This document shows positions 3,025 through 21,703 of a stretch of DNA of 64,000 nt, piece after piece. The stretch is taken from positions 1,889 to 65,888 of the forward strand of contig JBAVAG010000118.1 of the NCBI GenBank assembly GCA_049585595.1. Reading direction: 5' to 3'. The stretch comes from Desulfobaccales bacterium. GTDB lineage: Bacteria > Desulfobacterota > Desulfobaccia > Desulfobaccales > 0-14-0-80-60-11. The notes under the pieces are model-generated. The model saw nothing but the letters and a program-made list of their open reading frames with translations. It did no database searches and had not been told where the DNA came from. Made by a program: the position numbers and the translations under genes. Within the stretch, counting starts at the first letter, position 1. Each line of letters starts with the position of its first letter.

Positions 3025-3087
3025 AAAGATCTTGGAATCTTTAGATATTTCATGGTGAGCACTTCCCACCATTTTAAATCGAAACTT

Positions 3088-3125
3088 GGAACTGCTCACT
3101 GCTTACTGCTCACTGCTCACTGCTA
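3088..3125. repeat. Tandem heptamer array (CTCACTG/CTTACTG) x4-5 with no adjacent partner arm
   Basis: The sequence reads ggaaCTGCTCACTGCTTACTGCTCACTGCTCACTGCTa. Confidence 0.8.
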
Positions 3126-3160
3126 ATATACCAAAAAATCGCAGCAGAAGGGAGCCTTGC

Positions 3161-3334
3161 ATGGGCCGGGAGCGACCAGCAGACGCCCCCTTGCCGTCCC
3201 GGGAGGAACTGCTCCTGAAGGCGGCCAAGGAGATCGTGGTCAAGTTCATCGAGGTGGGCCGGGTCTCCCCCGCCTCCTTTAGTGACACCTTTAACCTGGT
3301 AATCGACACACTACGCCGATCCCTTAAGGATTAG
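3161..3334 (+). CDS. Small hypothetical protein (57 aa)
   Basis: ATG at 3161 is preceded by GAAGGGAG. Product is MGRERPADAPLPSREELLLKAAKEIVVKFIEVGRVSPASFSDTFNLVIDTLRRSLKD. The longer ORF from 3086 only translates the heptamer array. Confidence 0.5.
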   Translation: MGRERPADAPLPSREELLLKAAKEIVVKFIEVGRVSPASFSDTFNLVIDTLRRSLKD

Positions 3335-3335
3335 G

Positions 3336-3443
3336 ACAGTTTTCTGTTCACTGTTAACTCTTTTCTGTGAAAGCCCGAGGCCAGCCCCAATGGACCTTGG
3401 TTGAGACAGAAAACGGAAAACAGGAAACCGAAAACAGGAAACT
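3336..3443. repeat. Heptamer-array inverted repeat between the small ORF and rph
   Basis: Left arm 3336-3368 is TTTTCTG TTCACTG TTAACTC TTTTCTG. Right arm 3406-3443 is CAGAAAA CGGAAAA CAGGAAA CCGAAAA CAGGAAA. Confidence 0.8.
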
Positions 3444-3448
3444 AAGAG

Positions 3449-4189
3449 ATGATGCGCCGCAGCGGCGGGCGGGCTCGGGACCGGCTCCGGCCGGTGAGCC
3501 TCACCCCGGGCTACCTCGATTTTGCCGAAGGCTCCTGCCTGATAACCTGGGGCCGCACCCGGGTGGTGTGCGCCGCCACGGTGGTGGAGACGGTGCCGGC
3601 CTTTCGTCAATCCCGCGGCGGCGGCTGGGTTACCGCCGAATACGCCATGCTGCCCCGGGCGTCCCACAGCCGCCAGGAGCGGGAGTCCCGCCTGGGCCGG
3701 ATGGGGGGCCGGACCCAGGAGATCAGCCGCCTCATCGGGCGTTCGCTCAGGGCCGCGGTGGACCTGCAGGCCCTGGGAGCCCGCACCGTCATCCTGGACT
3801 GCGACGTCCTGCAGGCCGACGGCGGCACCCGCACCGCCAGCATCACCGGGGCCTACGTGGCCCTGGCCCTGGCCCTGGAAGGGTTGCGGCGCCAGGGCCT
3901 GCTGGCGGCCCTGCCCCTTTCCCAGCAGGTAGCCGCGGTGAGCGCCGGCGCCTACTGGGGTCAACTGCTGCTGGACCTGGACTATGAAGAGGATTCCCAG
4001 GCCGCGGTGGACGCCAACTTTGTGGGCACCGGCCAGAGCGAGCTCATCGAGGTGCAGGTCAGCGGCGAGGAGGGGCCCTTCCCGGTAGACCAGCTCCCGC
4101 AACTGCTGGCCCTGGCCCAGGAGGGTCTTAAGGAGCTTTTCCATCTCCAGGAGGAGGCCCTGCGCCCATGGATGCCCCTGTCCTGGTGA
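3449..4189 (+). CDS. rph: Ribonuclease PH
   Basis: LRPVSLTPGYLDFAEGSCLITWGRTRVVCAATV...GGGWVTAEYAMLPRAS...DCDVLQADGGTRTASITGAYVAL is a canonical RNase PH sequence. Confidence 0.95.
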   Translation: MMRRSGGRARDRLRPVSLTPGYLDFAEGSCLITWGRTRVVCAATVVETVPAFRQSRGGGWVTAEYAMLPRASHSRQERESRLGRMGGRTQEISRLIGRSLRAAVDLQALGARTVILDCDVLQADGGTRTASITGAYVALALALEGLRRQGLLAALPLSQQVAAVSAGAYWGQLLLDLDYEEDSQAAVDANFVGTGQSELIEVQVSGEEGPFPVDQLPQLLALAQEGLKELFHLQEEALRPWMPLSW

Positions 4190-7022: not shown

Positions 7023-9434
7023 CTAGCCGGCGACTTGCCGGTGGTCGGCACTCCCTTCATACATCTTCCAGGAGGCCTGGAAGGCCGCGGTAAAGGAGCG
7101 CTGCTTGACATGATCCCGAGCCGCCTGCCCCATTTCTCTCAACCTCTCCGGATCGGCCACCAGCAGATTGATGGCCTTGAAGAGCCCTTCCTCATCATTG
7201 GCCGGAACTATGACGCCGGTTTCCCCATCGATGACGTTCTCCTGTGGCCCCCCGGAATCGGTGACCACGACCGGAATGCCCGAAGCCTGCGCTTCCAGGA
7301 CCACATTGCCGAAGGTGTCGGTGGTGCTGGGGAAGACAAACAGGTCACAGGAGGCGTAGACCTGAGCCAGGTCCTCCCCTGCCAGATAGCCGGTAAAGGC
7401 GCAAGAGGGGCCCGCCAGCGCCCGCCGCATCTCTGTCAGATAGGGTCCGTCTCCCACGACGATCAATTTGAGCTCCGGGTGGCTGGGTAACAAGGTTTTG
7501 AAGACCTTGGCCAGGAGCGGCAAATTCTTCTCTTTGGATATCCGGCCCACGTAAAGGAGCTTCACCCCCTTCTTGATCTGATAGCACTTTTCCAACACCC
7601 CGTTGCGTTTGGCCGGATGGAACCGCTCGACATCCACTCCCCTGGGAAAGAGGCGGATCTTCTCCGGGTCGATCCCCTTCTGGTGCAATTCTTCAGCGGT
7701 GCTGCCGGAGGGCACAAAGACGAGATCCATCTGATTGTAAAACCAGATGATGTACTTCCACATCATCTCTTCCATAGCGGCATCACCCGTTAAATATTGA
7801 GTATATTGGGGCAGGGCGGTGTGATAAGTGCCCCAGATCGGCACCCTGAGCAGACGGGCCACCCCCAAGGCCGTAAGTCCCATGGGGCCCGGAGTGGCGG
7901 TCTTGATATGGGTAAAGTTCTGCTCATAACAATAGTTGAGGATTTGAAACAGAGGCGGATGGAAGAGTTTCTGTTCGGGGTATTCCGGTAACTGCAAGAC
8001 CCCGACGGGAGCGAAATTGCGAACCCCCGGCAGTTGCGGATGGGCCCCGGAATCGCAGGTGATAATGGTGTATCTCTTGTTGGCCCTGACCGCGGCCTCA
8101 GCCTGGCGCCGGAGAGTGAGTCCCACTCCGTTGACCTCATAAAAGGTGTCGGTAAAGTGCGCCAGGTTGAGTCCATTCTCTCGATTCTCAGGGCACTCAG
8201 AGGTGCGCCCCGAAAAACTTCGCAGGATTTCCGATCCGAGGCTCCGGTCCTTGGAGAAGGAAGAGAAGGCCGCCAGATAAGGAGTCAACCCCAGATAGAT
8301 CATCCCGGAAGACATGAGGGAATTAATCAAACCAAGGAAATTGGCCCCCCCCACCGCCTCGCGGAAATGTTCATGAAAGTGCTTCAAGATGGTGGTGGAG
8401 ATGTCATTGAGTATCTGGAACCACTGCATCCCGGGGCGGGTCGGCGACTTCTGCGGAGCCTTGATGGCTTCATTGACGATTAGAGACAGGAGTGGGTCGG
8501 TTTGGCTGCTTCTCGTGGAACTCCTGAAAAAATATTTAATCTTGTCCCGGTAATACTGATAGCGGGTGGGGATATGTTTAGGTTCTGAGCTGGTCTGCAG
8601 GAATCTTTCGAAAAAATTGATGAATAAGCTGGAACCGGCATACTTTCCCAGGTCGTATTTCTTTCTATAGAACTGATAAGCGATGCTATAGAGATTGTAA
8701 CCGAGCGTTATGGGCGTGGAGGCCTCCCCCTGGGGCCTGGCCTGGCCGACCTGGAGGCCGTGAAAGAAATGCTTTAAGGATCTGGCCCCCTCCACCCGGG
8801 TATACATCCGGGCAATGTTGAGAGAACTATGGTCATCGGAACCGCCGGTAAGATTCTTCTGCCAGGGGTTATGCATGCTGGGCGTGATGCCATACTTATC
8901 AGCCAATGCGTCCAGGTATTTCGGGGTGAGTTGGGACAACATGGCCTTGAGCCCTTCGTTCAAATGGCTATCCCTAGCCCCGTTCAGTTCGAAATTTTTG
9001 AAGAGCAGCAGAAATTTATCGAAATGGACCGGAGTCAAGCGATCGTTGACAGACCAAAAGGGATGGGCCAGAACGTGAGGGATCTGATTTTCTTCCAGAT
9101 AATGCACGAGGTCATAGATATTTTCCCTGGCCTGCTGCAGGTCTAGATGTTGTTTCTCATTAATATCGTAAACCAGGACGTGGGCCTTGCAGCGGTCCTC
9201 CGGGAAATAGGCGGTCAGTTCCTCGCTGATAAAGGTGTCGGGGTAGCCGGCGATTTCCAGGGAGCCGTCAATGACATTGTGGTCCGTAATGGTTACCCGG
9301 GACATGCCCAGCTTTTTGGCAAGGCGGTAGAGGGTCTGGGGCTCCGTATAACACTCCTGGCAGCCCAACTTTTGCAACACCCATTGGGAGGGTCGAGTGG
9401 AGTATTTGGAGTGTACGTGCAGATCGATCTTCAT
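7023..9434 (-). CDS. PHP-domain phosphoesterase fused to a GT4-family glycosyltransferase (803 aa)
   Basis: The N-terminus MKIDLHVHSKYSTRPS...ITDHNVIDG...HVLAHPF is PHP-type. The C-terminus KLLYVGRISKEKN...FVFPSTTDTFGNVVLEAQASGIPVVVTDSGGPQE is GT1/GT4-type with an EX7E region. Confidence 0.8.
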   Translation of the reverse strand: MKIDLHVHSKYSTRPSQWVLQKLGCQECYTEPQTLYRLAKKLGMSRVTITDHNVIDGSLEIAGYPDTFISEELTAYFPEDRCKAHVLVYDINEKQHLDLQQARENIYDLVHYLEENQIPHVLAHPFWSVNDRLTPVHFDKFLLLFKNFELNGARDSHLNEGLKAMLSQLTPKYLDALADKYGITPSMHNPWQKNLTGGSDDHSSLNIARMYTRVEGARSLKHFFHGLQVGQARPQGEASTPITLGYNLYSIAYQFYRKKYDLGKYAGSSLFINFFERFLQTSSEPKHIPTRYQYYRDKIKYFFRSSTRSSQTDPLLSLIVNEAIKAPQKSPTRPGMQWFQILNDISTTILKHFHEHFREAVGGANFLGLINSLMSSGMIYLGLTPYLAAFSSFSKDRSLGSEILRSFSGRTSECPENRENGLNLAHFTDTFYEVNGVGLTLRRQAEAAVRANKRYTIITCDSGAHPQLPGVRNFAPVGVLQLPEYPEQKLFHPPLFQILNYCYEQNFTHIKTATPGPMGLTALGVARLLRVPIWGTYHTALPQYTQYLTGDAAMEEMMWKYIIWFYNQMDLVFVPSGSTAEELHQKGIDPEKIRLFPRGVDVERFHPAKRNGVLEKCYQIKKGVKLLYVGRISKEKNLPLLAKVFKTLLPSHPELKLIVVGDGPYLTEMRRALAGPSCAFTGYLAGEDLAQVYASCDLFVFPSTTDTFGNVVLEAQASGIPVVVTDSGGPQENVIDGETGVIVPANDEEGLFKAINLLVADPERLREMGQAARDHVKQRSFTAAFQASWKMYEGSADHRQVAG

Positions 9435-9457: not shown

Positions 9458-10144
9458 TTAAGCGATTAAGACCGTCTCTCCGGCCCGGACTTTATCGCCC
9501 GGCCGGACCAGGATGCTCATCTCTGGCAGGAATGGCGCCACCAGGTCCACTTGCGAGCCGATGCGGATCATGCCGAAGACTTCACCCTTAGTTACCTGCT
9601 CCCCCGGGTTGACATAACTATCGATGCCTTTCACACTCTTCCCGGCGATTTGCACGACATAATAAGAGAGCGCCTCTCCCTTGAATCTGCCCTCCATATT
9701 GGTCACCACTCGTTCATTGTGGATAATGTGCCTCGAATTCTCATAAAAGGGGGCCCGCTTAAGCAGGGTCCGCCAATGCATGGGAGCCATGCAAAAATTC
9801 TTCACTATGGCTGGGTAGTGCCTGATAAAGTTGACCTTCCCGGGGAGCGGGGCCCGGTTGTAGTGGACATTGAAGGGGCTCATAAAGATGCCGATCAGGA
9901 TTTTGGGAGAGGGCAGGTCTTCTTTAACTATGTCGGTGAGAGTCGCCGACAGCCCCTGCTTGATTATTATTACCTCCTGCCGGGGGGCCACCCTGGTGAC
10001 ATAGACTACGGTGCCGTCGGCGGGACTGACCAGGGTCTCTCCCGGCGGCGGTACCCGCGGGGGGTTGCGAAAAAACCAGATGTAGCGCCAATATAGATAG
10101 CCCGTCAGTGTGGCAGTCAGGAGGGATATGGTTGGGAGGATCAA
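9458..10144 (-). CDS. psd: Phosphatidylserine decarboxylase family protein (short, archaeal-type)
   Basis: It has an N-terminal TM segment, FMSPFNVHYNRAP, and a GS self-cleavage-type motif in MIRIGSQVDLV. The TTG start overlaps the upstream stop (TTGA). Confidence 0.75.
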   Translation of the reverse strand: MILPTISLLTATLTGYLYWRYIWFFRNPPRVPPPGETLVSPADGTVVYVTRVAPRQEVIIIKQGLSATLTDIVKEDLPSPKILIGIFMSPFNVHYNRAPLPGKVNFIRHYPAIVKNFCMAPMHWRTLLKRAPFYENSRHIIHNERVVTNMEGRFKGEALSYYVVQIAGKSVKGIDSYVNPGEQVTKGEVFGMIRIGSQVDLVAPFLPEMSILVRPGDKVRAGETVLIA

Positions 10145-10836
10145 TGGAGCCTCTTCCAGGCGGAGGGGTCCACAACCCGGACCAGGGCGACGCCCGAGGA
10201 GAAGGGAAAATCGATCACCTCAAAGGAGGCCTCCTCCCGCTTGACGAATTTCAACCATTTCTTCACCCCCGCGTGCTTGACCAATTCCCTGAGGTAGATA
10301 TTGGTGTCGTGCAGAAAGATATAGGTATTCTTATGCGACTGCTCCAAGACCTTGATGAAATCGTATTTCACGTCTTTGTAGGCATGGCTGCCGTCTATGA
10401 AGGCCAGATTTAGGGGAGGCAATTTTAAATCCTGGAAACTGGGAAAAAACTCATCGCTGCGCATCTTATAATGAGTGATCAGGTTTTCTACGCCGAAGCG
10501 CCCGAAATGCGCTTTAACATGAGACTCATCGGTCCAGACGCCCCGTCCGCCTACGGTCATGAGGGGCCCATTCTTTAATAAAGAATAGGCCGGGTCGACA
10601 AAACTCAACCTGCCCCGGCCGTTGTCCTTTAGACCCAAGGCCAGACAAACAACGCTGAAGCCATATCCTGACCCTATCACTAAGACATGATCCGGTCTTA
10701 GGGCCCTGACTACCCCATAATACATAAAGCCGAACCCTAGGTTCAGTTCCCTGGTCTTTTCGTTGTGGCCAAAAGGCTTGGCAACTTTTAGGATATCCTT
10801 AAGAAGATCAGTACTTAAGCTAAAATCTCCCATCAT
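10141..10836 (-). CDS. Class I SAM-dependent methyltransferase (Methyltransf_24-like)
   Basis: VLVIGSGYGFSVVCLALGL (glycine-rich SAM loop) and AFIDGSHAYKDVKYDF. AGGAGGG lies upstream of ATGATG. Confidence 0.7.
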   Translation of the reverse strand: MMGDFSLSTDLLKDILKVAKPFGHNEKTRELNLGFGFMYYGVVRALRPDHVLVIGSGYGFSVVCLALGLKDNGRGRLSFVDPAYSLLKNGPLMTVGGRGVWTDESHVKAHFGRFGVENLITHYKMRSDEFFPSFQDLKLPPLNLAFIDGSHAYKDVKYDFIKVLEQSHKNTYIFLHDTNIYLRELVKHAGVKKWLKFVKREEASFEVIDFPFSSGVALVRVVDPSAWKRLH

Positions 10837-10872
10837 TGGACCCTCCTAAATTATTTTGAGATGATGTAACTA

Positions 10873-10887
10873 TGCACAAATTGTGCA
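10873..10887. promoter_or_regulatory. Perfect 15-bp palindrome TGCACAAATTGTGCA upstream of the methyltransferase operon (operator candidate)
   Basis: Seen directly, about 40-50 nt upstream of the ATG at 10836. A related GTGCAAATTGCGCA lies at 10896-10909. Confidence 0.4.
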
Positions 10888-10941
10888 ATTACAGGTGCAA
10901 ATTGCGCAATTACTATCGCACTTACATTACTATCTTATTGC

Positions 10942-10957
10942 AATTTGGTTAATTTTG
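10942..10957. promoter_or_regulatory. 16-nt motif AATTTGGTTAATTTTG (copy 1)
   Basis: It is identical to 13268-13283. Shorter TTTGGTTAA cores occur at 11526-11534, 15304-15312 (reverse complement) and 4962-4970 (reverse complement). Confidence 0.4.
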
Positions 10958-11122
10958 AGTTAATTCCAACTTGTCCAAAAAATATCACAAGTAAACGTAT
11001 TGCCTGAGTGGCAAGACCGCCTATAATTAAATCTCTTTGAGGGGATGATAAAGGGAGAACCGGGTGGGGCCACCGCTTAAATCTGAAGGAAAGGGAAGAA
11101 GGGGGAGGGAAAACCGTGAAAG

Positions 11123-11473
11123 TTAAACTGAATTCGCTTGAGCCGCATCCGGCAGGCCGCCCAGAATCACCTCACGGACAATTTCTGCCGCTTCCTTGCG
11201 CGAGGCCTCCAGGCAGTCTTGCCCTTGGGGAGTAAGCTCATAATATTTGCGAGCCCGCCCCTTGAAGACCCTGATGTGGCAGCGCATGAGGTTGGCCTTT
11301 TCCATGCTATGGAGCATAGGGTACAGGCTGCCCGGGCTGATGGCGTAACCCAGGCTGTGGAAATACTTACTCAGCCGGCCGCCGTAAACCGGCCCCAGAC
11401 TCGCCTGGTGCAGGACAATGAGTTTCACCATACCCTGCCAGAAGGCCTGGGAGATTTGTCTTTGAAAATTCAT
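11123..11473 (-). CDS. PadR-family transcriptional regulator
   Basis: LIVLHQASLGPVYGGRLSKYFHSLGYAISPGSLYPMLHSMEKANLM...KYYELTPQG is a winged-helix PadR signature. Confidence 0.85.
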   Translation of the reverse strand: MNFQRQISQAFWQGMVKLIVLHQASLGPVYGGRLSKYFHSLGYAISPGSLYPMLHSMEKANLMRCHIRVFKGRARKYYELTPQGQDCLEASRKEAAEIVREVILGGLPDAAQANSV

Positions 11474-11590
11474 ATATCGAATATTGATATATACCTGTTA
11501 GAAAATCATTAAGGTCTCATTGATTTTTGGTTAAAGAATCACTAAAGTTAGTTTTTCAAATTGTGCCTTTGCAAAGGAGGTAGGTGTGCC

Positions 11591-11896
11591 ATGGCTGTTA
11601 TGGATAATGGTCTGAAGGGCGCAGTTCCCAGTATTCTGGTGGTGTTGGGGGTGGCCCTGGCGGCCCCCATCGTTCTTCCCGCCGTGGCGGCGGTGTCCCG
11701 CCCGCTGGCCAAGACCCTGATCAGAGGCTATCTGACCTTGTCGGATATGGCCAAGGAGTTCGCGGCCGAGGCCGGGGAGCAGATCAGCGACCTGATGGCC
11801 GAGGTCCAGTCCGAACGCGCGGCAACCGCCACCGCCGAGGCGGCAGCCGCCACAGTGGAAGCGGTGGCCAAAACCAAAGTTAAACCAGGCAGTTGA
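11591..11896 (+). CDS. Small membrane protein, DUF5132-like (N-terminal TM helix plus Ala/Glu-rich helix)
   Basis: ATG at 11591 follows AAGGAGG. Product is MAVMDNGLKGAVPSILVVLGVALAAPIVLPAVAAVSRPLAKTLIRGYLTLSDMAKEFAAEAGEQISDLMAEV... The family name is from memory and needs HMM confirmation. Confidence 0.6.
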   Translation: MAVMDNGLKGAVPSILVVLGVALAAPIVLPAVAAVSRPLAKTLIRGYLTLSDMAKEFAAEAGEQISDLMAEVQSERAATATAEAAAATVEAVAKTKVKPGS

Positions 11897-11913
11897 CCAT
11901 TCCGGGAGAGAGA

Positions 11914-12486
11914 ATGGAACTCGAGGGCTTCAAAGTCGTCCATGCCCTGCCGGGGCGGGTGCGTCTCCAGGTCGCCAAGTTTAAGGGAAACCCGGCCCTG
12001 GCCCGCCAGGCTCAGGGAAAGCTCGCCAAGGTGCCGGGCATCACGCAGGTCGAGGCTAAACCAGGAACCGGGAGCCTGTTGATCCACTACGACCAGGACA
12101 AATTACTCTCCACGGCCTCCCTGGAAATCCTATCTGGGACCTTGGGGGAAATCTTTCCCGAAATCGAAGTCCTCACCCTGGCCACCGGGTTAGCCTCTCT
12201 GGCGGAGAATCCCGGCGCCGGGACCGGCTCGCCGGTGGCCGCCAGCCTGACCGGTTCCCTTAAGGCCGCCAATACCCGGCTGGCCAAACTTACCGGGGGG
12301 CTGGACCTGAAGCTCCTGCTGCCGCTCACCCTGATCTTCTTCGGCTTACGCAGGCTTTGGGCCGCCGACAAGGTCGCTTCCCCTTCCTGGTTCGACTATC
12401 TCTGGTTTGGCTTTGCCAGCTTTGTCATGCTGAACCGCGGCCTGGTGGAAGGCGGTACTGAGACCACAGCGGCAAAGAAAGACTGA
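11914..12486 (+). CDS. Cysteine-less HMA-like (HMA_2-type) domain protein with a C-terminal hydrophobic region
   Basis: MELEGFKVVHALPGRVRLQVAKFKGNPALARQAQGKLAKVPGITQVEAKPGTGSLLIHYDQ..., then LDLKLLLPLTLIFFGL and WFDYLWFGFASFVMLN hydrophobic segments. Confidence 0.65.
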   Translation: MELEGFKVVHALPGRVRLQVAKFKGNPALARQAQGKLAKVPGITQVEAKPGTGSLLIHYDQDKLLSTASLEILSGTLGEIFPEIEVLTLATGLASLAENPGAGTGSPVAASLTGSLKAANTRLAKLTGGLDLKLLLPLTLIFFGLRRLWAADKVASPSWFDYLWFGFASFVMLNRGLVEGGTETTAAKKD

Positions 12487-12818: not shown

Positions 12819-13190
12819 TCAAATCAGGCCTCCGACCAACCGGCTCAGAGCGACCTCCATCAAGGTGGCGGCCACGACCGAGGTCACTTTTTCCACCATC
12901 CCCTGCGGAGCAGATTGGGGGCTCGCAGTGCCGCTGGCCAGCGGACCGGCATGAGATAAATACCCCGATTCCCTTAATGATAAGATGATGCGCCACTGGT
13001 CGATGCAGTGGGGATTGTAAAGGACCAAGACGTTGCCGGTGGTGGGATTGGCGGAAACGGATTCGATGCCGGCAAATTGCTGCAGGTGCTGCTCAAGTTC
13101 CTGGGCCTGGTCGGCCGCCCCCTTAATCCTCGGAATCTTGATCCGCAACCTCCCTGCCAGGGCGTGTACGTAAGCTGAATCCACGTGCAT
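12819..13190 (-). CDS. Cysteine-less HMA-like domain protein with a hydrophobic C-terminal tail
   Basis: MHVDSAYVHALAGRLRIKIPRIKGAADQAQELEQHLQQFAGIESVSANPTTGNVLVLYNP..., followed by the VTSVVAATLMEVALSRLVGGLI tail. Confidence 0.65.
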   Translation of the reverse strand: MHVDSAYVHALAGRLRIKIPRIKGAADQAQELEQHLQQFAGIESVSANPTTGNVLVLYNPHCIDQWRIILSLRESGYLSHAGPLASGTASPQSAPQGMVEKVTSVVAATLMEVALSRLVGGLI

Positions 13191-13414: not shown

Positions 13415-14716
13415 ATGAAAAAAATCTATGTTTTGGATACCAACGTTTTATTGCACGATCCGGAATCCTTATTTGCTTTCGAAGACAACTCCATTGTTTT
13501 GCCGCTTTCAGTGATAGAGGAATTAGACCGCACTAAGAGGAGGGGTGATGAGGTGGGCAGAAATGCCCGGGAGGTTTCCAGAAGATTGGATGAATTGAGG
13601 TTGACAGGCCGCCTGGCGGAAGGGGTCCAACTCCCGGGAGGGGGCACCATCCGCATTGAATTAAACGGCACTAAATCATACGACCCGTTGAACGGGGTCG
13701 ATTTAAACATCATTGACAATAAAATCCTGGCCCTGGCCTATCATCTAAAGAGCAATGGAAATAACCCGCTGGTTTTGGTTACCAAAGATCTAAATCTGAG
13801 GATCAAGGCAGATGTCCTGGGGATTCCCACTGAAGATTTTTACAGCGATAAAGTAGATTATTGTAGGTTATATAACGGAGTTCAGGAATCATTTCTTGCT
13901 CAAGCTGAAATAGACCGGTTTTATCAGGATGGTTCGCTCGACTCCGCCCAGAATGGCCTTCATCCCAACCAATTCTGTATCATCAAATCCAGTGAAATTC
14001 CCTCCATTTCCGCCCTGGCCAAATACTGTGATAATAAAATCCATAAGCTCTCATATGACGGTAAGGCGGCTTATGGCATCAAAGCCTTGAATAAAGAACA
14101 GAGATTTGCCCTGGAACTGCTGCTGGATGATCAAATCAAGATCGTTACCTTAGTCGGCAAGGCCGGGACCGGGAAGACCATCCTGGCGTTGGCCGCCGGG
14201 CTGGAACGAGTCTTTGAGGATAACAGCAGATTTAACCGCCTCCTCATCACCAGGCCCATTGTGCCCTTGGGCAATGACCTGGGCTATCTTCCCGGGGATA
14301 AGGAAGACAAGATTCGCCCCTGGATGCAGCCCATATATGATAACTTGGAGTATCTCTGCAACGAGCATATCCGGTCCAACGGCTCCACCGAGTATTTGCT
14401 CAGCAGCGGTAAGATTGAATTGGAGGCCCTGACTTATATCCGGGGCCGCAGCATCCCTCGCCAGTTCATTATTTGCGATGAAAGCCAGAATCTCAGCCCC
14501 CATGTGATCAAAACCATCCTTACCCGGGTGGGCCGGGGCAGCAAGATCGTCTTCACCGGAGACCCGGAACAGATCGATCACCCGTATCTGGACGCTTCTT
14601 CCAATGGCTTGAGTTATTTGGTGGAGAAGATTAAAGACGAGAAGATTTCCGGCCACATAACCTTGATAAAGGGAGAAAGGTCCGGGGTCGCTGAATTGGG
14701 GGCTAGATTATTATGA
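13415..14716 (+). CDS. PhoH2-type protein (N-terminal PIN domain plus PhoH ATPase)
   Basis: YVLDTNVLLHDP...VIEELD is PIN-type. VTLVGKAGTGKTILAL (Walker A) and FIICDESQN (Walker B) are PhoH-type. The gene is visibly lower in GC than its neighbours. Confidence 0.85.
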   Translation: MKKIYVLDTNVLLHDPESLFAFEDNSIVLPLSVIEELDRTKRRGDEVGRNAREVSRRLDELRLTGRLAEGVQLPGGGTIRIELNGTKSYDPLNGVDLNIIDNKILALAYHLKSNGNNPLVLVTKDLNLRIKADVLGIPTEDFYSDKVDYCRLYNGVQESFLAQAEIDRFYQDGSLDSAQNGLHPNQFCIIKSSEIPSISALAKYCDNKIHKLSYDGKAAYGIKALNKEQRFALELLLDDQIKIVTLVGKAGTGKTILALAAGLERVFEDNSRFNRLLITRPIVPLGNDLGYLPGDKEDKIRPWMQPIYDNLEYLCNEHIRSNGSTEYLLSSGKIELEALTYIRGRSIPRQFIICDESQNLSPHVIKTILTRVGRGSKIVFTGDPEQIDHPYLDASSNGLSYLVEKIKDEKISGHITLIKGERSGVAELGARLL

Positions 14717-14916: not shown

Positions 14917-15204
14917 TTGCAGGACATCGAGATCATCGCCTCCCGGCCGGGCCAGCTCAGTCTGACCATAATCCGGGTTAAGGGCAATGAAGTCCTGGCG
15001 CGGGAGGTGCAGGACCGCTTGGGGGCTATCAGAGGGATTCACCAGGTGGAAGCGGACGCCGTCCAGGGACTGGTGTCCATCGACTACGACAGACAGCGGT
15101 TATCCTCCGTCAGTTTTCTGCTGCAATTAAAGGAGACCTTTTCCTCCCTATTTCCGGAAATCAGCGTAACTCAACTGGCTGCCACGATAAGCCGCAGTCT
15201 GTGA
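14917..15204 (+). CDS. Stand-alone cysteine-less HMA-like domain protein (95 aa, no TM)
   Basis: The TTG start follows GGGGAAGGA. Product is MQDIEIIASRPGQLSLTIIRVKGNEVLAREVQDRLGAIRGIHQVEADAVQGLVSIDYDRQ... Confidence 0.55.
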   Translation: MQDIEIIASRPGQLSLTIIRVKGNEVLAREVQDRLGAIRGIHQVEADAVQGLVSIDYDRQRLSSVSFLLQLKETFSSLFPEISVTQLAATISRSL

Positions 15205-15328
15205 AAGCCTTCCCTGAAGCCCGCCAAGGGGAGGTCCTGCCGGCTCATTGCCGGAGTGGCATCACAGACCTGGAAATGTTTGCTTTAAATTACTACCTTG
15301 AAGTTAACCAAAATTTTTGGAGGTCCAT

Positions 15329-15994
15329 ATGTCCCCCCAGGAAACTAAAGAGAGCAAGAGTATCGGCAAGATGCTGGGCGAAGCCGGCACCACCGTGAAA
15401 GACGGCCTGGTCGACAGCCTCAAGGGGCTGAACGAGATTGAAGCCCAAATCGTCACTCTGGCGAGAAACACCGTAACCGACGTCCTGAAGGGCACCGGCA
15501 GCGTGGCCAACGAGACCATCAATGTCAGCAAGGACGTCTTTAAAGGGGCGTTGAAGGCCAGCGAAGAGATGGGCTCCAGCCTGGTGGTGACCACCAAGGA
15601 TGTGGCCAAGGGCATTCTCCTGGGCCTTACCGATGTGGGCGGAGATGTGGGAAAGTCCGCCGCCCAACTGGCCAAAGGCGCGGTCAAAGGGGCCGGGGAA
15701 GTCGGCGGCGACGTGGCCCAGGTGGCCAAAAGCGCCGTAACCGGAGTCATTGAGGCCACTTCCGAGATCGGCGGCAATGTGGGCGAAGCCGCCAAGGCGG
15801 CGGCGGGTGGCGCCATTGAAGCCGCCGGCAGCCTGGGTCAGTCGGCGGTCAAGGCCGTCAGCGACATCCTGGTGGGTGCGGTCTCCGGCCTCAAGGACGT
15901 GGCTTGCGCCGCCTGGCCGAAATCGAAGGCCGGGTCGCCACCGGACTCCAAGCCGGAGGCCGTTGCCCATCCGGAAAAGAAGACGAAGGGGTAA
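15329..15994 (+). CDS. Repeat protein: about 8 tandem 22-residue Gly/Ala/Val/Lys-rich units and a Lys/Pro-rich tail
   Basis: ATG at 15329 follows GGAGG. Units include KSAAQLAKGAVKGAGEVGGDVA, QVAKSAVTGVIEATSEIGGNVG and EAAKAAAGGAIEAAGSLGQSAV. Confidence 0.65.
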   Translation: MSPQETKESKSIGKMLGEAGTTVKDGLVDSLKGLNEIEAQIVTLARNTVTDVLKGTGSVANETINVSKDVFKGALKASEEMGSSLVVTTKDVAKGILLGLTDVGGDVGKSAAQLAKGAVKGAGEVGGDVAQVAKSAVTGVIEATSEIGGNVGEAAKAAAGGAIEAAGSLGQSAVKAVSDILVGAVSGLKDVACAAWPKSKAGSPPDSKPEAVAHPEKKTKG

Positions 15995-16055
15995 GCCTGG
16001 CCGCGGCATCCCCATTAGCTGAACAGAGTTGACTAGGCAAGGTTATCCGGCCCCA

Positions 16056-19000
16056 ATGGTCGAAGCGATCCATACCGCGGTGGCGGGCAGGGCGAGGTTT
16101 AAGGTTGAGGGCCTGTACCGCTCCAAATCCCTGGAGAAGCTGCTGGAGTCGCGACTGGCGCGGCTGCAGGATATTTCCCTGGCCTCAGCCAACGCCCTCA
16201 CCGGCAACGTTCTGGTCTGCTACAATTCGGATAATAATCCCCAAACTATTGCGGCCTTAATTGAAGGGATCGTCTCCGATTGCCTGAAGTCCCCGCAGCC
16301 GGTCCCTTCATTTCCTGTCCCCGCTAAAGCCGGGGCTGCCATCGGGCTGGAAGATCGGGCCACCGCCTTAGACAGATTCAAGGGTCTCTTTGCCTATCCG
16401 CTGGAGCAGCCGGGTCAACCCTGGCACCGGCTGAAGGCCGAGGCGGTGTTGGCCCAATGGCAGACCTCCAGGGAAAAGGGGTTGTCCCTCAAGGCCGTCC
16501 AGGGAAACCGCCAGAAATACGGCCTCAATCTCCTGCCGGAAGCCGAGCCCCGGTCCGGCTGGGACATCTTCCTGGTCCAGTTTCAATCACTCCCGGTGGC
16601 CCTCCTGGGAGCGGCCGCCGGCCTTTCCATCTTCACCGGCGGGCTGGCCGATGCCGTGTTGATTGCCGGCGTAGTGGTCCTCAATGCCTTCATCGGCTAC
16701 AAAACCGAAAGCGAATCCGAAAAAACCATTCGCTCTCTGCAAACCCTGGTGCGGCCTGCCGCCCTGGTCTTGCGGGAAGGAGGGCTTCGCGAAATTCCCT
16801 CCGAAGAAGTGACCCCGGGAGACCTCCTGGTGCTGCGCCCCGGCACTTACGTGGCCGCCGATGCGCGCCTGGTCGAGGCTAACCACCTGTCCGTGGATGA
16901 GTCGGCCCTGACTGGGGAAAGCCTGCCCGTGAATAAAGATACCCGGCCCCTGAAACGGGATCATATCCCCTTGGGAGACCGGATCAACCTGGTCTTCATG
17001 GGCACCCTGGTGACCGGCGGTGAAGGTTTGGCGGTGGTGGTGGCCACCGGGATTTATACTGAAATCGGCCTGATCCAGTCTCTGATCGGCGAAGCCGCCA
17101 GCCCGGAAACCCCCATGGAGAGGCAGCTCGGCCAGTTGGGGAACCAACTGGTCCTCCTCTGTGGCGGAGTTTGCGGGGTGGTGTTCGTTATGGGATTTAT
17201 GTGGGGCTTCGGTTGGCTGGAGTTGCTGCGCACCTCCATCTGCCTGGCGGCGGCCGCGGTGCCGGAAGGGCTGCCCACCACGGCCACCACCACCCTGGCC
17301 CTGGGTATCCGCGACATGCGCAAGCACCATGTCTTGATCCGCCACCTGAACGCGGTGGAGACCCTCGGTTCGGTGCAGACTGTCTGCCTGGATAAGACCG
17401 GGACCATCACCCGCAACCAGATGTCCGTGCTCCAAATCTTTACCGGCATGAGGACTATCAAGGTGGCGGACGGGCAATTCCTGGGGCCCGCCGGGCCGAT
17501 TCCCCCCTTAGCCTGTGAGGAATTGGAGCAGCTCCTGAAGATCTCGGTGCTGTGCAACGAAATCGAAATCTATCAGGAAGGCGGGGATTATGTTCTCCGG
17601 GGGACTCCCACGGAGGCGGCCCTGGTCCATCTGGCCATCCTGGTGGGTCTCGACGTCACCGACCTGAGGAGACGGTATCCCCTTTTAAAAGTCAATCACC
17701 GTTCGGAAAACCGCCTGTTCATGGGCACGTTGCATAAGGATCCGCCCGCCGGCAGTCTTTTTGCAATCAAAGGCAACCCCCTGGAAGTTATGGCGCTCTG
17801 TTCCTGGCATCTCCAGGATGGCCGGAAAATGCCGCTCACCGATGAAGACCGGCAGCGCCTCGAAGCTGAGAACGAGGAGATGGCGGGGGACGCCCTGCGG
17901 GTCCTGGGGCTGGCCTATGCCCTGGGTCCGGATGAGTCCGTGGCTGAGAACGATAACCTGGTCTGGCTGGGCATGGTGGGCATGGCCGATCCCATCCGGG
18001 AAGGGGTGGGCGAGGCGATTCGGGCCTTCCATCGGGCGGGGATCGAGACGGTGATGATCACCGGCGACCAGAGTCCCACCGCCTATGCCATCGGCCAGGA
18101 ACTGGACCTGAGCCAGGGAGGCCCCTTGGAGATCCTGGACGCCACCCACCTGGCGGAGATCGAGCCGGAGGTCTTGCGGGCTCTGGTCAAGAGGGCCCAG
18201 GTCTTTGCCCGGGTCAGCCCGTCCCATAAGCTTGGGATAGTCCAGGCCTTGCAAGGGGCCGGCAAGGTGGTGGCCATGACCGGCGACGGCATCAACGACG
18301 GCCCGGCCCTCAAGGCCGCGGACGTGGGCATCGCCATGGGCCGCACCGGCACCGATATCGCCCGGGAAGTGGCGGACGTGGTCCTGGAGGAGGATAATCT
18401 CGATACCTTGATCATAGCCATCCGGGACGGCCGCACCATCTATATCAACATCCGCAAGTCGGTCCATTTCTTCCTGGCCACCAATCTCAGCGAGATCATG
18501 TTGACCTTTGTGGCTATGGCCGTCGGCCTGGGGTCTCCCCTGACCGCGGCCCAGCTCCTCTGGATCAACCTGATTTCCGATATCTTTCCCGGGTTGGCCC
18601 TGGCGATGGAAGCGCCGGAGCCTGATATCCTGGACCGCCCGCCCCGTGATCCCGCCCGGCCGATCTTCACCGGCAGCGACTATAAGAGAATGGCCTTCGA
18701 GTCCGGGGCCATCACCACCGGGGCCTTGGGGGCCTATGGCTATGGCCTGATGCGCTACGGCCTGGGGGCTCAAACCAGCACCCTGGCCTTTCACAGCCTC
18801 ACCACCGGGCAGCTCTTGCACGCCATCAGTTGCCGTTCTGATACCCATGGCATCTTTAGCCCGGGGAAATTGCCTCCCAACCGCTACCTGACCCTGGCCC
18901 TGGGGGGCTCGCTGGCGGTCCAATTCTTGACCGCGGCGGTCCCAGGATTGAGAAGCCTGCTGGGGCTCGCCCCGGTGGGCCTGTTGGATGGCCTGGTGAT

Positions 19001-19097
19001 TTCCGGCAGCGCCCTGCTGCCCCTGGTGGTAAACGAAGCCACCAAGAAACCGCCGGTCAATGGTGAAAACGAAGTCCCGGAGCCGGCCCTGGAGTGA
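16056..19097 (+). CDS. P-type ATPase, type II (PEGLP, Ca2+-ATPase-like) with an N-terminal cysteine-less HMA-like domain
   Basis: Motifs: TGES (LTGESLPV), AAAVPEGLPTTATTTLALG, CLDKTGTITRNQM, MITGDQ, TGDGINDGPALKAADVGIAMG. The N-terminus is MVEAIHTAVAGRARFKVEGLYRS...ANALTGNVLVCYN. An alternative TTG start lies at 16029. Confidence 0.9.
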   Translation: MVEAIHTAVAGRARFKVEGLYRSKSLEKLLESRLARLQDISLASANALTGNVLVCYNSDNNPQTIAALIEGIVSDCLKSPQPVPSFPVPAKAGAAIGLEDRATALDRFKGLFAYPLEQPGQPWHRLKAEAVLAQWQTSREKGLSLKAVQGNRQKYGLNLLPEAEPRSGWDIFLVQFQSLPVALLGAAAGLSIFTGGLADAVLIAGVVVLNAFIGYKTESESEKTIRSLQTLVRPAALVLREGGLREIPSEEVTPGDLLVLRPGTYVAADARLVEANHLSVDESALTGESLPVNKDTRPLKRDHIPLGDRINLVFMGTLVTGGEGLAVVVATGIYTEIGLIQSLIGEAASPETPMERQLGQLGNQLVLLCGGVCGVVFVMGFMWGFGWLELLRTSICLAAAAVPEGLPTTATTTLALGIRDMRKHHVLIRHLNAVETLGSVQTVCLDKTGTITRNQMSVLQIFTGMRTIKVADGQFLGPAGPIPPLACEELEQLLKISVLCNEIEIYQEGGDYVLRGTPTEAALVHLAILVGLDVTDLRRRYPLLKVNHRSENRLFMGTLHKDPPAGSLFAIKGNPLEVMALCSWHLQDGRKMPLTDEDRQRLEAENEEMAGDALRVLGLAYALGPDESVAENDNLVWLGMVGMADPIREGVGEAIRAFHRAGIETVMITGDQSPTAYAIGQELDLSQGGPLEILDATHLAEIEPEVLRALVKRAQVFARVSPSHKLGIVQALQGAGKVVAMTGDGINDGPALKAADVGIAMGRTGTDIAREVADVVLEEDNLDTLIIAIRDGRTIYINIRKSVHFFLATNLSEIMLTFVAMAVGLGSPLTAAQLLWINLISDIFPGLALAMEAPEPDILDRPPRDPARPIFTGSDYKRMAFESGAITTGALGAYGYGLMRYGLGAQTSTLAFHSLTTGQLLHAISCRSDTHGIFSPGKLPPNRYLTLALGGSLAVQFLTAAVPGLRSLLGLAPVGLLDGLVISGSALLPLVVNEATKKPPVNGENEVPEPALE

Positions 19098-19132
19098 GCC
19101 GCAGCCGGCTTTTGGCGAGAGGGGCGCCATAG

Positions 19133-20332
19133 ATGAAAAGTGACTTTATCTTCATGTCGGAGTCGGTAACCGAGGGGCACCCGGATAAGATCTGCGATCA
19201 GATCAGCGATGCCATCTTGGATCATTTCCTGGCGCAAGACCCCCAGGCCCGGGTGCGGGCCGAATGCGCCGTGGCCACTTCCATCCTGTTCATTGCCACC
19301 CGGTTTGTTTCCGAAATTAAAGTCGATATCCCCAGGGTGGCCCGCAAGTTCCTCAGCCAGCTCGGCTATACGAAACCCGACTTCGACGCCCGCACCTGCA
19401 GCGTCTTGACCAGTCTCCAAGAATATCCGCCGGATGCGGATCTCTTTTTCAACGAGCACCGGCTGACCGATAAAGAAGTGGAAAACTTCCACGTGCGGCA
19501 GCAGGCCACAGTCTTCGGTTTTGCCTGCCGCCAGACCGCGGCCTTGATGCCCCTGCCCATTTGGTTGGCGCACCGGCTGGCCCGGCAACTCGTCGCGGCC
19601 CGGGTTCAGAATCTGGCGCCCTATCTGTCGCCGGACGGCAAGACCACGGTGGGGGTGGAGTATAGAAACCGCCGGCCCCATCGGATTCAGAGCGTTACGG
19701 TCCTTGCCAGCGGCTCCAAGGCCGCCTGCCAGGAAATATCCGAGAAGCGCTTGCATGACGATATCCGGGAAGTGGTGATCAAGCCGGCCTTCGCCGATGA
19801 AGAGCTGAAACCGGATAATCAGACCCTGATCTTTGTCAATCCGGAGGACCACCTCATAATGGGCGGCCCTGCGGTGCATTCCGGGCTCACGGGCCGCAAA
19901 TCCGACGTTGACACCTATGGCGAATATGCCCGGCACAGCGGCAACGCCTTGAGCGGCAAGGACCCCATGCGCATCGATCGGGTGGGGGCTTATGCGGCGC
20001 GCTACGCCGCCAAGAATGTGGTGGCGGCCGGACTGGCGGAGGCATGCGAGGTCCAGTTGAGCTATTCCATCGGCTTTTCCCGGCCAGTCAGTATTCAGGT
20101 GGAAACCTTTGGCACCGGCAAGTTGACGGACGAGAAACTGGCCGACCGGCTGGAGCGGCACTTCGATTTTCGCCTGGCCGCCATCCTGCGGGATTTCAAC
20201 CTGAGGCACCTTCCCGCCCTGCATAAAGGAGGTTTTTACCGGAAGCTGGCGACCTATGGCCACGTGGGGCGCCTCGACCTTGATCTGCCCTGGGAAGTTA
20301 CCGACAAGGCGGGGGCGCTCAAAGGACGGTAA
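19133..20332 (+). CDS. S-adenosylmethionine synthetase (MetK) paralogue with substituted catalytic motifs
   Basis: SESVTEGHPDKICDQISDAILD, GLTGRKSDVDTYGEYARHSGNALSGKDPMRIDRVGAYAARY and KLATYGHVGR are MetK-like. However, GAGDQG is replaced by RQQATV, and GGGAFSGKD by SGNALSGKD. Confidence 0.75.
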   Translation: MKSDFIFMSESVTEGHPDKICDQISDAILDHFLAQDPQARVRAECAVATSILFIATRFVSEIKVDIPRVARKFLSQLGYTKPDFDARTCSVLTSLQEYPPDADLFFNEHRLTDKEVENFHVRQQATVFGFACRQTAALMPLPIWLAHRLARQLVAARVQNLAPYLSPDGKTTVGVEYRNRRPHRIQSVTVLASGSKAACQEISEKRLHDDIREVVIKPAFADEELKPDNQTLIFVNPEDHLIMGGPAVHSGLTGRKSDVDTYGEYARHSGNALSGKDPMRIDRVGAYAARYAAKNVVAAGLAEACEVQLSYSIGFSRPVSIQVETFGTGKLTDEKLADRLERHFDFRLAAILRDFNLRHLPALHKGGFYRKLATYGHVGRLDLDLPWEVTDKAGALKGR

Positions 20333-20983
20333 ATGCAAAATCTACACCTGGTAGCCATTCTGTTACTGGCATTTGCCAGTAATCTTGACAATGTCGGGGT
20401 GGGCGTTTCTTATGGCATGAGGAAGATCAACATCCCCTTTACCTCCAACCTGCTCATTGCGGTAGTTACCTCAATCGGCACCCTTTTGTCAGTACTACTC
20501 GGCAAGAGCATCTATCTTTTCATAAGCGCGGAAATGACCGGTTTATTGGGGGGAGGCATCATCATCGTCGCCGGGATCTGGGTACTCTTCCAGGAGAAAT
20601 TCATGCACCGGGGCCAGGAGCCCCAGGAAGAGACGCCAATGGTTGCCGAAACCGGTTCTCCCGGATTTAGTTTTCGGCAAATTGTCTCGATTCTCGACAA
20701 CCCGATTAATGCCGACAAAGATTTCTCCGGGCATATCGACCTCAAGGAAGCCGTCGCCTTATCCCTGGGCCTGACCATCAATAATATCCCCAATGGCGTT
20801 GGCGCCGGGATGGTGGGCGGCGGCGCCATTTTAATGACGAGTGCCGTCTTCGTATTCAGCATTGTGACCATCTGGATTGGGATATCAGGCGGTCTTTTAG
20901 GATTTAAATGGCTGGGCAAGTTAACCGGGCTGATCGCCGGCTTGATTCTCATCGGCGTCGGCCTTTACGAAATTTTCTTTTAA
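20333..20983 (+). CDS. YtaF-like membrane protein (MntP/DUF204 superfamily, putative divalent-cation efflux)
   Basis: LLAFASNLDNVGVGVSYGMRKINIPF and a second half, LSLGLTINNIPNGVGAGM, with about 6 hydrophobic segments. The ATG directly abuts the metK-like TAA. Confidence 0.65.
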   Translation: MQNLHLVAILLLAFASNLDNVGVGVSYGMRKINIPFTSNLLIAVVTSIGTLLSVLLGKSIYLFISAEMTGLLGGGIIIVAGIWVLFQEKFMHRGQEPQEETPMVAETGSPGFSFRQIVSILDNPINADKDFSGHIDLKEAVALSLGLTINNIPNGVGAGMVGGGAILMTSAVFVFSIVTIWIGISGGLLGFKWLGKLTGLIAGLILIGVGLYEIFF

Positions 20984-21016: not shown

Positions 21017-21703
21017 ATGGCCCACGAAAGCATTTTAGCGGTGGAAGACGACGAGGACATCCTGGAACTCCTCAAGTATAACCTGGGCAAGGAGGGGTAC
21101 CGGGTTACCGCAGTCACCACGGGGGAGGAAGGATTGCGCCTCGCCCATGCGGCCCCGCCGGATCTGATCTTACTGGACCTGATGCTCCCGGGAGTGGACG
21201 GACTGGAGGTCTGCCGAAGTCTCAAGATGGACGACAAGACCCGGAAGACGCCGATTATTATGCTCACCGCCAAGGGAGAAGAAGCGGACATCGTCACCGG
21301 TCTGGAGCTGGGAGCGGAGGACTACATCACCAAGCCCTTCAGTACCAGGGTCTTGCTGGCCCGGGTGCGGACGGTGCTGCGCCGTCCCCACATTGCCCCG
21401 GCGGGTGAAGATGCGCTTCTCAAGATCCATGACCTGGTCATCGACCCGGGCCGCCACGAGGTTTTGGTCCAGGGGCAGCCCGTCGACCTGACGGCCACCG
21501 AGTTTCGCCTCCTCCATCTGCTGGCGCGCCGCCCGGGCTGGGTCCTCACCCGGGCTCATATTGTCGAGGGGGTTCACGGCGATGATTACCCGGTGACGGA
21601 CCGGGCGGTGGATGTGAAAATCGTGGCGCTGCGCAGGAAACTGGGCCCCGCCGCCCAGTATGTCGAAACCGTCCGGGGAGTGGGATATCGCTTCAAGGGA
21701 TAA
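21017..21703 (+). CDS. OmpR/PhoB-family response regulator
   Basis: ILAVEDDEDILELL...DLILLDLMLPGVDG...ITKPF is the receiver. LTATEFRLLHLL...VETVRGVGYRF is the winged helix. No adjacent histidine kinase. Confidence 0.9.
   Translation: MAHESILAVEDDEDILELLKYNLGKEGYRVTAVTTGEEGLRLAHAAPPDLILLDLMLPGVDGLEVCRSLKMDDKTRKTPIIMLTAKGEEADIVTGLELGAEDYITKPFSTRVLLARVRTVLRRPHIAPAGEDALLKIHDLVIDPGRHEVLVQGQPVDLTATEFRLLHLLARRPGWVLTRAHIVEGVHGDDYPVTDRAVDVKIVALRRKLGPAAQYVETVRGVGYRFKG

Follow-up and report, generated by a model that had tools for sequence, protein, structure and literature searches.

Two described systems resemble the gene module reported here. Calcyanin, a marker of intracellular amorphous CaCO3, consists of a triplicated long glycine zipper (GlyZip) that is predicted to form helical hairpins. 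A GlyZip is defined by glycine or another small residue and a hydrophobic residue every four residues over about 50 residues, with a central Gly-Pro and a largely apolar composition. The surroundings of the calcyanin gene ccyA in Microcystis encode two DUF5132 proteins, a CoBaHMA-DUF454 protein, a second CoBaHMA protein, calcyanin itself and a Ca2+/H+ exchanger (CAX), several of them being co-expressed (preprint), and in other cyanobacteria the CoBaHMA domain is fused directly to the GlyZip domain. The fez clusters encode a P1B-6 ATPase with an N-terminal R-rich motif, R-rich/HMA proteins with two transmembrane (TM) segments (FezC) and hydrophobic GxxxG proteins (ferrosome preprint). Intracellular carbonate has also been reported in phyla including Nitrospirota, in papers that name no genetic basis; in the mSystems paper, which deals with the carbonate inclusions of magnetotactic Nitrospirota, there is no mention of ccyA or of an ATPase. 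Here we describe a locus in a stretch of 64,000 nucleotides, hereafter the window, from a Desulfobaccales bacterium (GenBank assembly GCA_049585595.1, contig JBAVAG010000118.1, positions 1,889 to 65,888 of the forward strand). It encodes a Gly/Ala/Val/Lys-rich repeat protein, named REP, directly ahead of a CoBaHMA-tagged P-type ATPase. REP is built from eight tandem 22-residue amphipathic units, and it may act as a surface scaffold or coat together with the pump.

The window brings comparable parts together. A DUF5132 gene, three stand-alone HMA_2 (CoBaHMA) genes and a PMR1/SERCA-like ATPase gene flank the REP gene; as around ccyA, a DUF5132 protein, CoBaHMA proteins, a helical repeat protein rich in small residues and a Ca2+ transporter are encoded side by side. 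A homologue search with the DUF5132 protein returned only Desulfobaccales-like close relatives, and no HMA_2 match was found in the control genomes. The two neighbourhoods differ in the transporter, which is a P-type ATPase in the REP module and a CAX protein next to calcyanin, and in the repeat protein. A GlyZip has a strict period of four, is apolar and contains Gly-Pro, whereas REP has an amphipathic period of 22 residues with Lys, Asp or Glu in every unit and no proline in the repeats. Self-correlation of the REP sequence at a lag of four residues gives z = 3.9, but nothing is seen at lags 8, 12 and 16 (z = -0.6, -0.7 and -0.9, respectively), and the Pfam Gly-zipper families yielded no REP-family match at E <= 1. 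By the published definition REP does not qualify as a GlyZip, being set apart from calcyanin by this description and not by sequence comparison.

Similar to the fez clusters, the locus encodes an ATPase with an N-terminal R-rich/HMA-like region, a FezC-like two-TM protein (11893-12486) and accessory proteins with GxxxG motifs. The pumps belong to different classes: FezB is P1B-6 (iron), whereas the pump of the REP module is of the P2A, PMR1/SERCA-like type. The GxxxG proteins of the fez clusters are hydrophobic and reside in the membrane; G-x3-G motifs are also found in REP, which has no TM segment. Among the NCBIfam models, the ATPase best matches those of PMR1-type Ca2+-ATPases (604 bits) and SERCA-type Ca2+-ATPases (508 bits), with neither score reaching its equivalog cut-off. 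Its translation contains PEGLP in M4, NLSE in M5 and NLISD in M6, which we take to occupy the positions of the SERCA Ca2+-site residues. The N-terminus of the pump reads H-x-x-V-x-G-R-A-R-[FY]-K-V, matching the conserved histidine and the basic strand that define CoBaHMA, a domain from which CxxC is absent (CoBaHMA paper).

The REP open reading frame (ORF), 15329-15994 on the plus strand, is a genuine gene, present in a single copy in the genome. The orthologues share the N-terminus MSPQETKES, which fixes the start at ATG 15329, and this codon is preceded by a GGAGG motif, a strong ribosome-binding site; therefore the product has 221 residues, which fits the coordinates given in a preliminary description of the window by a model. 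The upstream TTG 15317, which would give a frame of 225 residues, is probably unused. An antisense ORF of 240 residues (15293-16015, minus strand) covers the entire REP gene and most likely arises as a side effect of the repeat, which is GC-rich and codon-biased towards Gly/Ala/Val. The REP homologues were all retrieved by, and aligned to, the plus-strand product and not the antisense ORF.

REP is dominated by few residue types (A 33, G 31, V 27, K 24 and S 19 in the 225-residue frame). BLOSUM62 self-correlation against 500 shuffles gave peaks at lags of 22 (z = 10.2), 44 (z = 8.8) and 66 residues (z = 6.5), with weaker peaks at 11 (z = 4.8) and 18 (z = 4.7) besides that at 4. Residues ~10-196 are tiled by eight to nine 22-mers, the last five being the clearest, confirming the eight tandem 22-residue repeats of the preliminary description. 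The consensus written there for the unit stands as to its 22-residue period, whereas the pattern itself has 21 positions and its [AV] positions hold loosely. Its remark that Cys, His and Trp are missing ahead of a Lys/Pro-rich tail needs a small correction for Cys and Trp, both of which are found in the final repeat (..KDVACAAW), immediately preceding the tail. The tail itself is present and basic, with an isoelectric point (pI) of 9.7 compared with 5.0 for the core. No DNA-level tandem repeat was detected in the gene by Tandem Repeats Finder, indicating that the repeat is old and has been maintained at the protein level. The repeats can alternatively be read as four 44-residue units.

Over 184 residues, the hydrophobic moment has a sharp line at 98.18 degrees (z = 10.9) and falls to background at 95 and 100 degrees. 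The amphipathic moment proposed earlier as a check on the amphipathic reading is thus present, as expected of any 22-residue helix repeat: the line is the sixth harmonic of such a repeat (6 turns per 22 residues) and by itself does not prove one uninterrupted 11/3 helix. Small residues in G-x3-G spacing line one edge of each hydrophobic stripe, as at G99-G103 and G121-G125 (225-residue numbering), and conserved GG[DN] turns separate the units. The family alignment is position-specific, with G86, G108, A166 and A170 invariant and G99, G103, V107, G109, G130, D132, G152, G165 and I167 nearly invariant. REP contains no hydrophobic segment of TM grade; the mean hydrophobicity per helix is 0.15-0.55, with charges throughout. 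The tail is short throughout the family and usually basic or His-rich, and in the Nitrospirota orthologues it ends in a conserved PE[IV]TT[KR]x[KR]x[KR][KR]GE.

Judged from profile searches, REP is a member of a large family without a name in Pfam or NCBIfam. An exhaustive profile search found 1008 representative clusters (50% identity) at E <= 1e-3, 459 at 1e-10 and 83 at 1e-30, and a word-index search gave 34 relatives. Relatives are encoded in at least 294 species genomes, with orthologues 97-50% identical; the 97% identical orthologue is found in one Desulfobaccales metagenome-assembled genome (MAG). The best 80 genomes belong to Desulfobaccales, other Thermodesulfobacteriota, Nitrospirota/Thermodesulfovibrionales, Ca. 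Manganitrophus, Binatia and Syntrophobacteraceae, together with one Geobacteraceae MAG.

Searches of Pfam, NCBIfam and the PDB sequences with REP alone and with 25 family members yielded sub-threshold matches only. Homology to a known unrelated repeat family, named in the preliminary description as evidence that would count against a lipid coat, did not emerge, no named repeat family being matched significantly. Among the weak matches, the Senescence model PF06911 (spartin/ERD7) was hit by 6 of the 25 members (best E = 0.004, under the 24.6-bit gathering score). REP is the sole match of this model in its genome at E <= 1 (11.3 bits, E = 0.38), and across 21 genomes several relatives were matched at E = 0.1-0.9, mostly open frames of similar size (228-244 residues) and never significantly. 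Phasin_2 PF09361 was hit by three members (best E = 0.028, below the cut-off), the Ag473 lipoprotein model by seven (best E = 0.091, sub-threshold) and Apolipoprotein PF01442 by one relative (E = 0.008, 16 bits against a 90-bit cut-off). The family profile searched against all PDB sequences retrieved a phage tape-measure protein (E = 0.06) and alpha-synuclein (E = 0.24-3.6), and these matches represent a shared vocabulary, not demonstrable homology. An identity as PspA/ESCRT-III was rejected, as no model matched.

Gene order was compared in 80 related genome loci, whose ORFs were called and searched with the proteins of the window, the evaluable subsets comprising 64-73 loci. REP is immediately followed by the ATPase gene in 60 of 73 loci, and the ATPase is in turn followed by a MetK-like gene in 54 of 73, across phyla. 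Upstream, an HMA_2 gene directly precedes REP in 50 of 70 loci and a DUF5132 gene lies within 5 kb in 61 of 70. The loci with conserved order span Desulfobaccales, Nitrospirota, Binatia, Ca. Manganitrophus and others, bearing out the putative operon that had been proposed to start at 14917, with REP just upstream of the ATPase. A promoter/terminator scan of 14917-19400 found no terminator-like site except a weak one inside metK.

The ATPase frame continues the REP frame in 33 of 64 loci, with a gap of 0-9 nucleotides after the REP stop codon in 26 of them; close junctions were found in L035, L042-L046, L049-L066 and L078-L083, where the ATPase often starts with GTG two codons past the stop. 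These in-frame junctions suggest translational coupling, and read-through of the stop codon giving a REP::ATPase fusion is conceivable. Apparent REP::ATPase and CoBaHMA::REP fusions (P0001, P0003, P0035 and perhaps P0048) were rejected as Rosetta-stone evidence, as they resemble the artefacts that frameshifts or read-through create in metagenome assemblies. In several MAGs, mostly 'MFD' assemblies (L013, L017, L018, L031, L077 and L084), the ATPase is broken into many short frames. These splits look like assembly frameshifts, the same problem that lies behind the apparent fusions P0001, P0003 and P0035.

Co-occurrence was examined in 151 genomes drawn evenly from the phylum, the pump being recognised by its CoBaHMA plus Cation_ATPase_N architecture. 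REP is present in 11 of these genomes and the CoBaHMA-ATPase in 14. They occur together in 9 genomes, compared with about 1 by chance, and are adjacent in 8.

A sister subfamily (P0031, P0015 and P0024), 35-42% identical to REP over the full length and with His-rich C-termini, adjoins or lies within 3.4 kb of a wax-ester/triacylglycerol synthase (WS/DGAT) gene in three of five contexts. In L003 the order is acyl-CoA synthetase, phasin, REP relative (8001-8654), WS/DGAT and fatty-acyl reductase; in L092 WS/DGAT, an alpha/beta-hydrolase and the REP relative (3070-3780) follow on the same strand; in L005 WS/DGAT lies 3.4 kb upstream of the REP relative (8001-8693). The fourth context contains patatin, CFA synthase and a hydrolase, and the fifth is a short contig. 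WS/DGAT genes are rare in genomes; therefore three of five contexts would be far above chance. Read from these neighbourhoods, the association supports a possible lipid-surface role for the family, and the wax-ester-linked subfamily may represent a new class of proteins on the surface of bacterial lipid droplets.

Other relatives occur as fusions, in which REP behaves like a portable module. REP paralogues carry a C-terminal MucR/Ros zinc-finger domain in P0004, P0005, P0007, L070 (9983-11083) and L073 (9965-11086), fusions of this kind being found in Syntrophobacteraceae, and further fusions combine REP with an N-terminal receiver domain (P0054) or with a GGDEF domain (P0028). In the MucR fusions REP replaces MucR's own oligomerisation domain, and the position of REP in place of a dimerisation or oligomerisation domain hints at self-association. 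PhaF/PhaM/MLDS-type granule proteins combine an amphipathic helical surface domain with a DNA-binding tail. REP resembles them in its helical domain followed by a basic Lys/Pro-rich tail, or by the MucR DNA-binding domain in the paralogues, but shares no sequence similarity with them, and any DNA role of the 25-residue tail is putative.

Across the family, cation transporters of four families neighbour REP: P2A ATPase, YtaF/MntP, CorA and TerC. Syntrophobacteraceae loci have the DUF5132 gene 1-3 kb upstream of REP and lack the ATPase. In L048, the one locus examined among them, REP (9923-11357) is followed by a membrane protein of the TerC family (Mn/Ca exporter family; 11375-12148), with a ParA/MinD-like ATPase on the opposite strand. 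The genome studied here contains no TerC.

Two AlphaFold2 models were compared. Model 1, computed from a 25-sequence alignment, contains eight helices of 18-25 residues with breaks of 1-4 residues at the G-rich motifs. Its mean predicted local distance difference test score (pLDDT) is 78, exceeding 90 over residues 100-190, and its predicted template-modelling score (pTM) is 0.70. A Foldseek search of the PDB with this model retrieved the de novo designed helical repeat proteins DHR4 and DHR7 (TM-score 0.6-0.7) and no similar fold of a natural protein. Model 2 was meant as a docking test, with a Nitrospirota orthologue translated through the stop codon into the ATPase N-terminus and 26 naturally paired sequences as input. 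The CoBaHMA domain is confidently folded (pLDDT 85-89), while REP appears as four helices of 36-47 residues at pLDDT 44-57, and the overall pTM is 0.29. The breaks that survive are TGS, DVGGD and GGN, resulting in a 44-residue super-period. The two models disagree, and the predicted compact solenoid of model 1 is not robust. Two helical arrangements are expected for exchangeable amphipathic-repeat proteins, though this is no proof. Both the conserved GG[DN] turns and model 1 point to helix-turn-helix units packed together and not to a single long helix that coats a surface. The reading as a right-handed hendecad coiled-coil fibre was rejected in view of the conservation of the GG[DN] turns and the prediction of helices of the hairpin type.

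We propose that REP is a non-enzymatic, all-alpha protein, with its eight 22-residue amphipathic units and short basic tail, which would associate with itself into a scaffold or coat lying peripherally on the pump-bearing membrane, on its cytoplasmic side. Its partners would be the CoBaHMA-tagged Ca2+/Mn2+-type ATPase, the DUF5132 protein and the small membrane proteins with CoBaHMA. The membrane carrying the pump may bound an intracellular cation-storage compartment, a proposal made by analogy because the fez clusters and the ccyA neighbourhood share the same parts list. We infer the surface binding, the self-association, the transported ion and the compartment from sequence, genomic context and analogy, and adopt the scaffold or coat acting with the pump tentatively, putting its chances slightly below even.

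Several observations weigh against this proposal. Of the 25 family members, 23 have an acidic repeat core (pI 4.5-5.6, net charge -1 to -10), and seven of the eight REP helices have a HeliQuest-type lipid-binding discriminant < 0.68; therefore electrostatic binding to anionic bacterial membranes is not favoured. Five of the 14 pump genomes in the phylum sample lack REP, indicating that the pump is not strictly dependent on it. The compact solenoid of model 1, resembling designed helical repeat proteins, fits a soluble adaptor equally well, and model 2 gives no confident docking of REP to CoBaHMA (pTM 0.29). In addition, no compartment has been reported in REP-bearing organisms and no inclusion seen, a further difference from the ferrosome systems.

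In the main rival explanation, REP would be a soluble acidic alpha-solenoid adaptor that binds the basic CoBaHMA patch of the pump and of the small membrane proteins, regulating or assembling the pump complex with no lipid contact. The core, acidic in nearly all members, would be the anionic partner proposed for the basic patch in the CoBaHMA papers, and the compact model 1, the conservation of the GG[DN] turns and the tight gene coupling of REP to the CoBaHMA-ATPase are all consistent with an adaptor. However, the read-through model (model 2) shows no confident arrangement and does not reproduce the solenoid, and family members in WS/DGAT clusters and TerC contexts have no CoBaHMA gene nearby. 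We consider the adaptor rather unlikely.

A more specific form of the scaffold proposal makes REP the functional counterpart of calcyanin outside cyanobacteria, as the coat or organiser of a fez-like, membrane-bounded Ca/Mn mineral (carbonate or phosphate) store built with the CoBaHMA-tagged P2A pump in place of an iron pump. We consider this decidedly unlikely. If it were true, the five-gene module (DUF5132, CoBaHMA, REP, ATPase and MetK-like) would be a marker of intracellular Ca/Mn biomineralisation in Nitrospirota, Desulfobaccales and relatives. Two mineral-storage systems share this design, and the REP module would be the third, distinguished by the class of its pump and by a novel repeat protein. 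The module also provides a concrete gene set to work with, and the REP family, with about a thousand 50%-identity clusters, is unnamed in Pfam and NCBIfam.

As a minor rival, REP could be a low-affinity Ca2+/Mn2+ buffer or chaperone, whose acidic turns hold the ion and pass it to the adjacent pump. The acidic core, the invariant D-V-G-G-D and the conserved E/D-x-G-x-D turns, the recurrence of cation transporters of four families next to REP, and the lack of CxxC in CoBaHMA would agree with such a role. Against it, REP contains none of the known Ca-binding motifs, such as EF-hand or RTX, and has no Pfam match of that sort, the Gly-then-Asp turns may be more simply read as a helix C-cap followed by an N-cap, and the WS/DGAT-linked relatives have no transporter nearby. 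We regard the buffer as improbable.

The lipid-coat reading of the preliminary description was upheld in part. REP has the 11/22-residue amphipathic periodicity and the Ala/Val/Gly/Lys-rich vocabulary of apolipoprotein A-I/E, perilipins, alpha-synuclein, phasins and spartin/ERD7, and it further resembles these exchangeable lipid-surface proteins in its ambiguous predicted conformation, in the relatives found in neutral-lipid clusters with WS/DGAT and phasin, and in the weak matches to these families. The differences are that all matches are sub-threshold, that the core is acidic with seven of eight helices under the discriminant, and that the turns are Gly-Gly-Asp (GG[DN]) and not proline. A phasin- or perilipin-like coat of neutral-lipid or polyhydroxyalkanoate (PHA) granules in this organism would account for the clusters of the sister subfamily and for the sub-threshold Phasin_2, Senescence and Apolipoprotein matches. 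But the gene is embedded in a pump operon, and this 98%-complete genome contains no WS/DGAT, PhaC_N or PF05597-type phasin (the tblastn positive control worked, and the PhaC_N control was positive in Caulobacter); therefore coating lipid droplets or PHA is not the job of this copy, and the granule coat is very improbable here. Hardly credible, finally, is a role of REP as a general stress protectant or LEA-like hydrophilin built of 11-mer repeats, which would fit the 11/22-residue periodicity and the HSP20 and BON-domain genes near some distant relatives, but the core is not strongly hydrophilic as in LEA group 3 (LEA_4; grand average of hydropathy +0.21), neither REP nor the family members match any LEA Pfam family, and the operon with the pump is conserved.

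Table 1. Coordinates of the REP gene, its parts and the surrounding genes in the window.
Feature	Position	Strand	Basis and remarks
Candidate PadR	11123-11473	-	PadR gene at the same position in syntenic locus L002
DUF5132 small membrane protein, start of the wider module	11591..11896	+	PF17195 on identical protein
CoBaHMA protein with C-terminal hydrophobic hairpin, FezC-like architecture	11893..12486	+	PF19991 E = 1.1e-19, 145/154 model positions; C-terminus read from translation
Third stand-alone CoBaHMA protein	12819..13190	-	PF19991 E = 1.1e-12; syntenic in most loci
PIN-PhoH	13415-14716	+	
Small CoBaHMA protein (Pfam HMA_2), first gene of the local operon	14917..15204	+	PF19991 E = 2.5e-6, 28 bits against 30-bit cut-off
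Shine-Dalgarno GGAGG	15319..15323	+	5 nt before ATG 15329; read directly from sequence
REP gene, 221-residue Gly/Ala/Val/Lys-rich repeat protein	15329..15994	+	ORF and orthologues; stop codon 15992-15994
Repeat core, eight about-22-residue amphipathic helix units	15350..15913	+	Residues 8-195 of 221; acidic, pI about 5
Basic Lys/Pro-rich C-terminal tail PKSKAGSPPDSKPEAVAHPEKKTKG	15917..15991	+	Predicted disordered, pLDDT below 50-60; pI 9.7
CoBaHMA::P-type ATPase, P2A-type (PMR1/SERCA-like)	16056..19097	+	Pfam E1-E2_ATPase, Cation_ATPase_N and _C, HMA_2
MetK-like	19133..20332	+	TIGR01034, 373 bits, above metK equivalog cut-off
YtaF/MntP-family membrane protein, last gene of the run	20333..20983	+	TIGR02840 E = 1.6e-45 and Pfam Mntp; present in Desulfobaccales loci
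PhoB-like response regulator	21017-21703	+	Just downstream of the gene run

The genes around REP (Table 1) showed further features. No Mn2+ or other riboswitch was found ahead of the operon, the Rfam scan of the window giving three tRNAs only. The insertion of PIN-PhoH between the CoBaHMA genes is restricted to the Desulfobaccales loci, and in most Nitrospirota loci (about 29/33) DUF5132, CoBaHMA and REP are contiguous. The MetK-like gene locked to the pump is S-adenosylmethionine synthetase-like. Elsewhere in the genome, three more HMA_2 (CoBaHMA) matches were found (G000 contigs C25, C16 and C70), and one such off-locus match, in a frame of 744 residues, may be another P-type ATPase. Genes of phosphate metabolism lie near the related loci L001 and L010, namely PhoU, PHO4, porin O/P, a PstS-like protein and alkaline phosphatase; with the PhoB-like regulator, these nearby genes hint at a link to phosphate limitation.

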